NCBI RefSeq assembly: GCF_003334315.1
Contig: NZ_QOWR01000012.1
Strand: one strand, 5' to 3'
From: Escherichia coli
GTDB taxonomy: Bacteria > Pseudomonadota > Gammaproteobacteria > Enterobacterales > Enterobacteriaceae
Length of the DNA stretch: 64,000 nucleotides
Part shown: in pieces, positions 31,424 through 32,001 of the stretch
Numbering within the stretch: the stretch's first letter is position 1
How the letters are laid out: each line of letters begins with the position of its first letter
Notes under the pieces: model-generated
Told to the model about the DNA's origin: nothing
The model's database searches: none
Seen by the model: the letters and a program-made list of their open reading frames with translations, nothing else
Program-made: the position numbers and the translations under genes

Positions 31424-31434
31424 CCATTCTGTAT

Positions 31435-31486
31435 TTGGTTAAATTGCGAGCGAGATCGCGTCTTCGATTGACTGCAATTTAACCAA
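31435..31486. other. Perfect 13-bp inverted repeat (ttggttaaattgc ... gcaatttaaccaa) with a 26-nt spacer, just downstream of bioD
   Basis: Read directly from the sequence; no adjacent T-run. Confidence 0.6.
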
Positions 31487-31582
31487 TTAAATTCTAAAAT
31501 AATCACGAAAAAAATTTTACTTCCGCCTCATGCGGCGAATGTGGGAATTGCCCAGGCGGCGGGGGATAGGGGCTGCAGACAG

Positions 31583-31606
31583 TTATCCACTATTCCTGTG
31601 GATAAC
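31583..31606. promoter_or_regulatory. Inverted pair of DnaA boxes (ttatccac / tgtggataa) in the uvrB upstream region
   Basis: agttatccactattcctgtggataacc; DnaA box consensus TTATCCACA. Confidence 0.5.
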
Positions 31607-31909
31607 CATGTGTATTAGAGTTAGAAAACACGAGGCAAGCGAGAGAATACGCGGCTTGCACGCGAATTGGCGTTAAAGACGGCTCAAAGAAATATCTTTT
31701 ATTTTTTAACTGGTTAGATAAATGCAATGGCAGTCACTGAACAGGCATCTCTTGCCATAAAACTGTCATCACTCATCTTGACAAATGTTAAAAAAGCCGT
31801 TGCTTTGGGGATAACCCGGTAAGGCCGGAGTTTTATCTCGCCACAGAGTAAATTTTGCTCATGATTGACAGCGGAGTTTACGCTGTATCAGAAATATTAT
31901 GGTGATGAA

Positions 31910-31925
31910 CTGTTTTTTTATCCAG
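31910..31925 (+). promoter_or_regulatory. LexA (SOS) box of uvrB overlapping a tataat -10 hexamer
   Basis: ctgtttttttatccag followed by tataat, about 80 bp upstream of the uvrB start. Confidence 0.75.
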
Positions 31926-32001
31926 TATAATTTGTTGGCATAATTAAGTACGACGAGTAAAATTACATACCTGCCCGCCCAACTCCTTCAGGTAGCGACT
32001 C

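Follow-up and report, generated by a model that had tools for sequence, protein, structure and literature searches.

DARS1, the LexA-controlled uvrB promoters and an Escherichia-specific hairpin in the bioD-uvrB spacer of Escherichia coli

What occupies the 578 bp between bioD and uvrB in this Escherichia coli strain, a stretch for which the MG1655 annotation lists no feature? Within the window (the whole stretch of DNA analysed here, 64 kb long), the spacer (31424-32001) extends from the bioD stop codon (TAG, 31421-31423), which ends an ORF of 225 aa at 31423, to the ATG of uvrB at 32002, from which an ORF of 673 aa runs (uvrB CDS, 32002..34023, + strand). Of 5426 complete E. coli genomes, 5425 matched an 801-bp query across the spacer at 95% identity or better. 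All matches in these 5425 genomes sit between annotated bioD and uvrB, which identifies the region as the bioD-uvrB spacer of E. coli. Over the 801 bp a single base differs from MG1655 (31577 is C, not G), upstream of DnaA box I, which is described below.

We conclude, with a probability of roughly 0.9, that the spacer is made up of DARS1, a LexA-controlled uvrB promoter unit and a hairpin that belongs to neither. DARS1 and the LexA- and DnaA-controlled uvrB promoters are already known, textbook-level E. coli biology. The present analysis itself shows the identity of the sequence, how the boxes are arranged, what is conserved, and that no RNA family, RNA fold or small ORF is present; for the binding of DnaA and LexA, the release of ADP and the activity of the promoters we rely on publications. 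For comparison, 80 Enterobacterales loci were fetched through BioD, and uvrB was located in 72 of them. A conservation profile over 66 non-Escherichia sequences revealed near-invariant blocks at 31571-31660, 31708-31730, 31777-31795 and 31805-31817, at the LexA box and at the hexamers of uvrB promoter P1. The original prediction had placed an inverted repeat, a pair of DnaA boxes and a LexA box in this spacer, and the coordinates of all three are correct. In shuffled sequence, the repeat and the box pair are rarer than seen here.

The uvrB promoter cluster

The LexA (SOS) box of uvrB P2, AACTGTTTTTTTATCCAGTA (31908..31927, + strand), is identical to the published 20-mer. Its CTG-N10-CAG core, CTGTTTTTTTATCCAG (31910-31925), forms a palindrome with an A/T-rich centre, and the 20-mer runs 2 nt into the -10 element of P2 (TATAAT, 31926..31931, + strand), which confirms the predicted overlap of a LexA box with a core promoter element. 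The right half of the box is also a weak DnaA-box-like 9-mer, TTATCCAGT (31918-31926). The pattern CTGT-N9-CAG is not rare, with 7 matches against 5.8 expected, and the significance of the LexA box therefore rests on its identity to the published uvrB SOS box and on positional conservation: in 68 of the 72 related loci, a CTG-N10-CAG precedes the uvrB ATG by 87-101 bp. On the minus strand, a promoter-like match (TGGATA-17-CATAAT, 31896-31924) lies over the LexA box; it is probably due to chance, because its -10 element is not conserved in other genera and two such matches were found where 1.2 are expected.

Three uvrB promoters, P1, P2 and P3, have been described, with a strong LexA box between the -35 and -10 elements of P2, to which LexA binds tightly, and with DnaA boxes at P3, which DnaA represses via a consensus box (PMC6015884). 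Published DNase I footprints place LexA on the P2 box and DnaA on the upstream boxes, and published lacZ fusions indicate that P1-2 and P3 both contribute, with the consensus DnaA box chief in the repression of P3. LexA footprinting and lexA-null data, also published, report LexA bound at its box and derepression. This literature agrees with the original idea that several promoters receive SOS and DnaA inputs separately. A consensus scan located P1 (TTGGCA, a 17-bp spacer and TAAAAT; 10/12 matches) at 31935..31963 on the + strand, and its hexamers are listed for the bioD-uvrB spacer in a genomic SELEX study of RpoD (PMC3946193).

In the proximal uvrB promoter unit (~31905-31970), LexA on the SOS box between the -35 and -10 elements shuts P2, and DNA damage opens it through RecA-stimulated cleavage of LexA. 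P1, 31 bp downstream of P2, gives basal expression. The start of P3 should lie at ~31620-31630, near the left end of the DARS1 flank; this position is approximate and combines mapping of the 1980s with the published location of the DARS1 boxes in the P3 promoter. Calling the whole spacer a uvrB leader, as was done at first, does not fit these positions: the 5' UTRs of P1 and P2 measure only ~30 and ~60 nt, and only P3 transcripts would cross a longer stretch, of ~380 nt.

The hairpin after bioD

A perfect 13-bp inverted repeat (31435..31486, + strand) begins 11 nt after the bioD stop codon, ~135-190 bp upstream of the presumed P3 start. Its arms, TTGGTTAAATTGC (31435-31447) and GCAATTTAACCAA (31474-31486), pair across a loop of 26 nt. 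It is the sole perfect inverted repeat of at least 13 bp with a spacer of at most 40 nt in the window, against 0.045 expected from dinucleotide shuffles, and the folding energy of the RNA is -20.9 kcal/mol (z = -4.2). The predicted stable hairpin is borne out by this z-score and by its uniqueness in the window. Its placement in a uvrB leader is not, because P3 probably starts further downstream; if the hairpin is part of any unit, that unit is the 3' end of the bio operon. Elsewhere in the window, the divergent promoter region of bioA and bioB has a perfect 12-bp inverted repeat with a 16-nt spacer (27738-27777), ~45-80 bp before bioB starts, which is probably the bio operator bound by BirA.

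The arms of the hairpin are found only in Escherichia, where six of seven lineages have fold z-scores of -2.4 to -6.5; the values are near zero in other genera. Within E. coli the arms are conserved and the flank and loop vary; in five divergent strains the arms are invariant bar one G-U-compatible change. Among the arm substitutions seen across Escherichia, three are G-U compatible on the + strand (in three lineages) and three break pairs. The hairpin is single copy (blastn with word size 11 over the 5425 genomes gave a median of one place in each) and is therefore not a REP or BIME element, which would occur in many copies. A repeated element was likewise rejected as an explanation for the distal module described below, also single copy.

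Most other genera sampled carry an orphan gene for a UrtE/LivF-like ABC-ATPase of ~240 aa between bioD and uvrB. The gene lies on the opposite strand, overlaps the 3' end of bioD and scores below the NCBIfam cut-offs; in locus L070 it spans 3668-4387 (L070:3668-4387, - strand), and it occupies the same place in most of the loci L010-L081. Carriers include Klebsiella, Enterobacter, Kosakonia, Pantoea and others. It is absent from Escherichia, Salmonella and some Citrobacter, one of which (L015) retains a 44-aa remnant; a tblastn search of the E. coli spacer gave no credible match to such a remnant. Homology of the E. coli spacer to the genomes with the gene starts at ~31436, which is the left arm of the hairpin. 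These alignments indicate that the hairpin is an Escherichia-specific structure at the scar of a lost ABC-ATPase gene. The loss of the gene and the hairpin at its scar would explain why the spacer looks oddly long and feature-dense.

The loop contains a palindrome with GATC, GCGAGATCGC (31450-31459). In other genera the homologous motif, AAATGTGAGCAAGATCTCAC (corresponding to window 31441-31462), is conserved and is likewise a palindrome with GATC. It resembles a CRP site (TGTGA-N6-TCTCA) and lies ~190 bp upstream of the ABC-ATPase gene where that gene is present. Judged from the motif and its position, AAATGTGAGCAAGATCTCAC may be a regulatory site of the ABC-ATPase gene that is decaying in E. 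coli.

As to the role of the hairpin, our favoured guess, at somewhat less than even odds, is that it gives the bioBFCD mRNA a stem-loop at its 3' end. Such a stem-loop would protect the end of the bio mRNA and damp read-through into DARS1. Several observations weaken this role: the stem is followed by TTAAATTCTAAAAT and not by a U tract; the Term-seq tables searched (PMC7815308) list neither a 3' end for bioD nor one in the uvrB 5' UTR; in a long-read study, bioBFCD and uvrB fall into a single transcription-unit cluster, and termination at the hairpin would therefore be at best partial; and some substitutions in the arms break pairs.

Nearly as likely is a hairpin without function, either a by-product of the deletion of the ABC-ATPase gene or a neutral palindrome. 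Its location where homology to the gene-bearing genomes starts agrees with this explanation, as do its restriction to one genus, the arm mismatches in some lineages, and the lack of both a U tract and a reported 3' end. However, a perfect repeat of 13 bp would rarely arise by chance (the 0.045 per window given above), the fold is kept in six of the seven Escherichia lineages, and the arms of the five divergent E. coli strains have stayed invariant but for the one G-U-compatible change in a varying flank and loop. We consider it unlikely that transcription of the bioBFCD operon ends at the hairpin in a Rho-independent manner. The stable + strand stem shortly after the bioD stop codon would suit such a terminator, but the stem is A/T-rich, with only 4 G-C pairs of 13, the loop of 26 nt is long for a terminator and no U run follows. 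A terminator scan did not call the hairpin, and both the lack of a listed 3' end and the shared transcription-unit cluster argue against termination here.

DARS1 and a distal DnaA-box module

The inverted pair of DnaA boxes that was originally predicted is present, but its role as part of DARS1 and a third box had been overlooked. Box I, TTATCCACT (31583-31591, + strand), has one mismatch to the consensus TTATCCACA. Box II (31597-31605, - strand) is a perfect TTATCCACA and the main DnaA operator of uvrB P3; it is called DnaA-box6 in PMC6015884. Box III, TAATACACA (31609-31617, - strand), is conserved and matches the DARS1 double box cTAATACACAtggTTATCCACAg listed in a DnaA ChIP-seq study, which is the reverse complement of window 31596-31618 and places the box at 31609-31617. 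Box I is opposed to boxes II and III. The gaps of 5 bp between boxes I and II (ATTCC) and of 3 bp between boxes II and III (CCA) are unchanged in all 72 loci, and the 5-bp gap is also stated in the literature (PMC6868365). The window has just one inverted pair like that of boxes I and II, where shuffles predict 0.02.

The 35-bp core with the three boxes is present in 72/72 Enterobacterales loci with only 5 variable positions, and in 67 of the 72 the uvrB ATG follows it at a distance of 405-427 bp. It is followed by a flank, GAGTTAGAAAAC...AAGCGAGAGAATACGCGGCTTGC (31618..31660), that is identical to MG1655, near-invariant across genera and free of indels in 41 aligned sequences. A flank of ~50 bp has been reported to enhance ADP release in vitro. 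Three 9-mer boxes in this orientation and with this spacing, located between bioD and uvrB and with the stimulatory flank after box III, indicate that the element is the DARS1 of K-12, found here in another E. coli strain. The published definition of DARS1 comprises 101 bp, the exact limits of which are approximate in our coordinates. Further upstream, ~65-85 bp from box I, lies a block of A-tracts and T-tracts (31496..31519; majority form CAAAAAAnAGCGATAAAAATTTTTT) that is conserved across genera in the 66 non-Escherichia sequences. The window as a whole holds 24 DnaA-box-like 9-mers (TTATCCACA with at most one mismatch) where 11.7 are expected, a number reached in 0 of 100 shuffles.

Published work on MG1655 reports that DARS1 strips ADP from DnaA, so allowing ATP to rebind, and raises ATP-DnaA in cells. 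According to the mechanism described there and elsewhere, ADP-DnaA dimerises head to head when bound to boxes I and II, and ADP is released. The DnaA complex is stabilised by box III and the flank; apo-DnaA then departs and rebinds ATP, which gives a higher capacity to initiate replication. Since the boxes overlap uvrB P3, DnaA occupancy also represses this promoter.

That the boxes serve solely as a transcriptional operator for uvrB, with no part in the nucleotide cycle of DnaA, is very improbable. The overlap with P3, and the repression of P3 by DnaA mainly via the consensus box, would be accounted for. In contrast, published biochemistry and genetics tie ADP release to exactly these boxes, and deletion of the DARS1 core lowers ori/mass. 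A simple operator needs no head-to-head boxes with a fixed 5-bp gap, an arrangement that recurs in DARS2, and the near-total conservation of core and spacers in all 72 loci exceeds what a weak secondary promoter would call for.

An Rfam scan of 30900-32500, a check proposed with the original prediction, gave best scores of 12-20 bits against thresholds of 40-76, from eukaryotic families only, and no RNA family reached threshold. RNAalifold on 41-73 orthologous sequences, run for both strands over 31796-31850, 31618-31700, 31618-31835, 31560-31700 and 31700-31835, returned only pairs of the palindrome of DnaA boxes I and II. A terminator-like hairpin at 31816-31828 was rejected, as its fold in E. 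coli has z = -0.7 and is not conserved. The length of the spacer had been given correctly as 578 bp; it is not strictly free of ORFs, since mechanical ORFs of 48, 45 and 31 aa are present, although neither length nor frame of these is conserved in the 72 related loci. Neither a conserved small ORF nor a known sRNA was found, the two discoveries that had been named as fatal to the original prediction. With no RNA fold, no family and no stable ORF, conservation is therefore at the DNA level. A structured leader, an sRNA or a small protein as the cause of the conservation can be dismissed as the least probable explanation, since the ~380 nt that P3 transcripts would cross, the ORFs of 31-48 aa and an ATG at 31727 that recurs in many species are set against chance matches to Rfam, no conserved pairs on either strand of 31618-31835 apart from the box I/II palindrome, ORF lengths that range from 25 to more than 100 aa among species, and conservation in continuous blocks without a codon period.

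The conservation profile contains a further element, a distal module of the form CTTGACAAATGTTAAAAAAG-N9-TGGGGATAACC (31777..31817). It comprises a DnaA box, TGGGGATAA (TTATCCCCA; 31806-31814, - strand), that shares its flanks with box II, and TTGACAAATGTTAA; the module can also be written CTTGACAAATGTTAAAA-N-TGGGGATAACC. The distal box is found in 73/73 Enterobacterales sequences, 208-210 bp from box II (~20 helical turns), and a TTGACA precedes it by 28 bp in 64 of the 73. In the same 73 sequences, the LexA box lies at no fixed distance from it (39 to 105 bp). The module is present once per genome and is at least 99% identical in 5371 of the 5425 E. coli genomes, a level that the hairpin region reaches in only 3924. 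The DnaA ChIP-seq study reports a peak centre for DARS1 at 813,331; the oriC entries of its table are NC_000913.3 coordinates, and the centre therefore maps to window 31807, on the distal module and ~200 bp from the DARS1 core.

Neither a conserved RNA fold (RNAalifold) nor a + strand -10 element was found at the distal module. A sigma-70 promoter at the perfect TTGACA (31778-31783) was rejected, as neither E. coli nor the majority sequence has an acceptable -10 element at the required 16-19 bp downstream. On the minus strand, a weak promoter of the form TTATCC-17-TAACAT is possible.

DARS1 is described as a cofactor-independent element of 101 bp. We raise the possibility, which we hold to be doubtful, that DARS1 in the cell is a spacing-locked unit of ~235-250 bp (31571-31817) that extends beyond the published 101 bp. 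DnaA bound to the distal module might loop to the core, or the module might serve as a cofactor site. The deep conservation of the distal box and its fixed spacing of ~209 bp to the core are not part of the 101-bp definition and are apparently new, and in the uvrB promoter literature we found no discussion of the distal TTGACA block or of the hairpin. Conserved from Pantoea to Escherichia, the module is a testable candidate for a missing regulatory part of DARS1.

The distal module bears on a widely used deletion. According to its primer homologies (PMC4585315), DARS1::cat removes 441 bp (31436-31876), more than the 101 bp of DARS1: P3, the distal module and the hairpin are lost together with the core and flank of DARS1. 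The common DARS1 deletion has been published to carry the largest fitness cost in mice, with a strong colonisation defect. This defect is not assignable to the DARS1 core alone, because the 441-bp deletion also removes the module, the hairpin and P3, and the phenotypes of large DARS1 deletions may stem from more than the core.

Two E. coli genomes have insertions near the module. In strain ZH063 a prophage with P27-type terminase genes is inserted just left of it (L083:3470, window 31769/31770); this is the sole genome among the 5425 in which the spacer is split far apart. In Z1324SEC0014 an IS1B lies between the distal module and uvrB P2 (L082:~798, after window 31897); DARS1 and P3 are thereby cut off from the other two promoters, P1 and P2, and the LexA box is not disrupted.

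Comparison with known systems

The uvrB promoter cluster has been described by Sancar in 1982, van den Berg in 1985 and Wurihan in 2018. The LexA 20-mer, the TATAAT of P2 and the TTGGCA-17-TAAAAT of P1 are identical to it, and no difference was found across P1, P2 and P3. The hairpin resembles Rho-independent terminators and stabilising 3'-UTR stem-loops in being a stable stem-loop after the last gene of an operon. Unlike Rho-independent terminators, it has an A/T-rich stem, a 26-nt loop and no U tract, and unlike REP and BIME elements it is single copy.

The first description of the DARS1 of E. coli K-12 is credited to a 2009 study by Fujimitsu, Senriuchi and Katayama. The K-12 element occupies the same locus and has the same three boxes, orientation, gaps and flank as the element in the window. 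DARS2, in the ygpD-mutH spacer, likewise has boxes I-III with a spacing identical to that of DARS1 and with box I opposed to boxes II and III, and its ADP-release mechanism is proposed to be the same. Box II is a perfect consensus in DARS1 and has one mismatch in DARS2. DARS2 depends on sites for IHF and Fis within a regulatory region that measures 250-450 bp, and it is sensitive to supercoiling, whereas DARS1 is reported to be cofactor-free and independent of supercoiling. The part that the IHF and Fis sites have in DARS2 is one that the distal module could play at DARS1.
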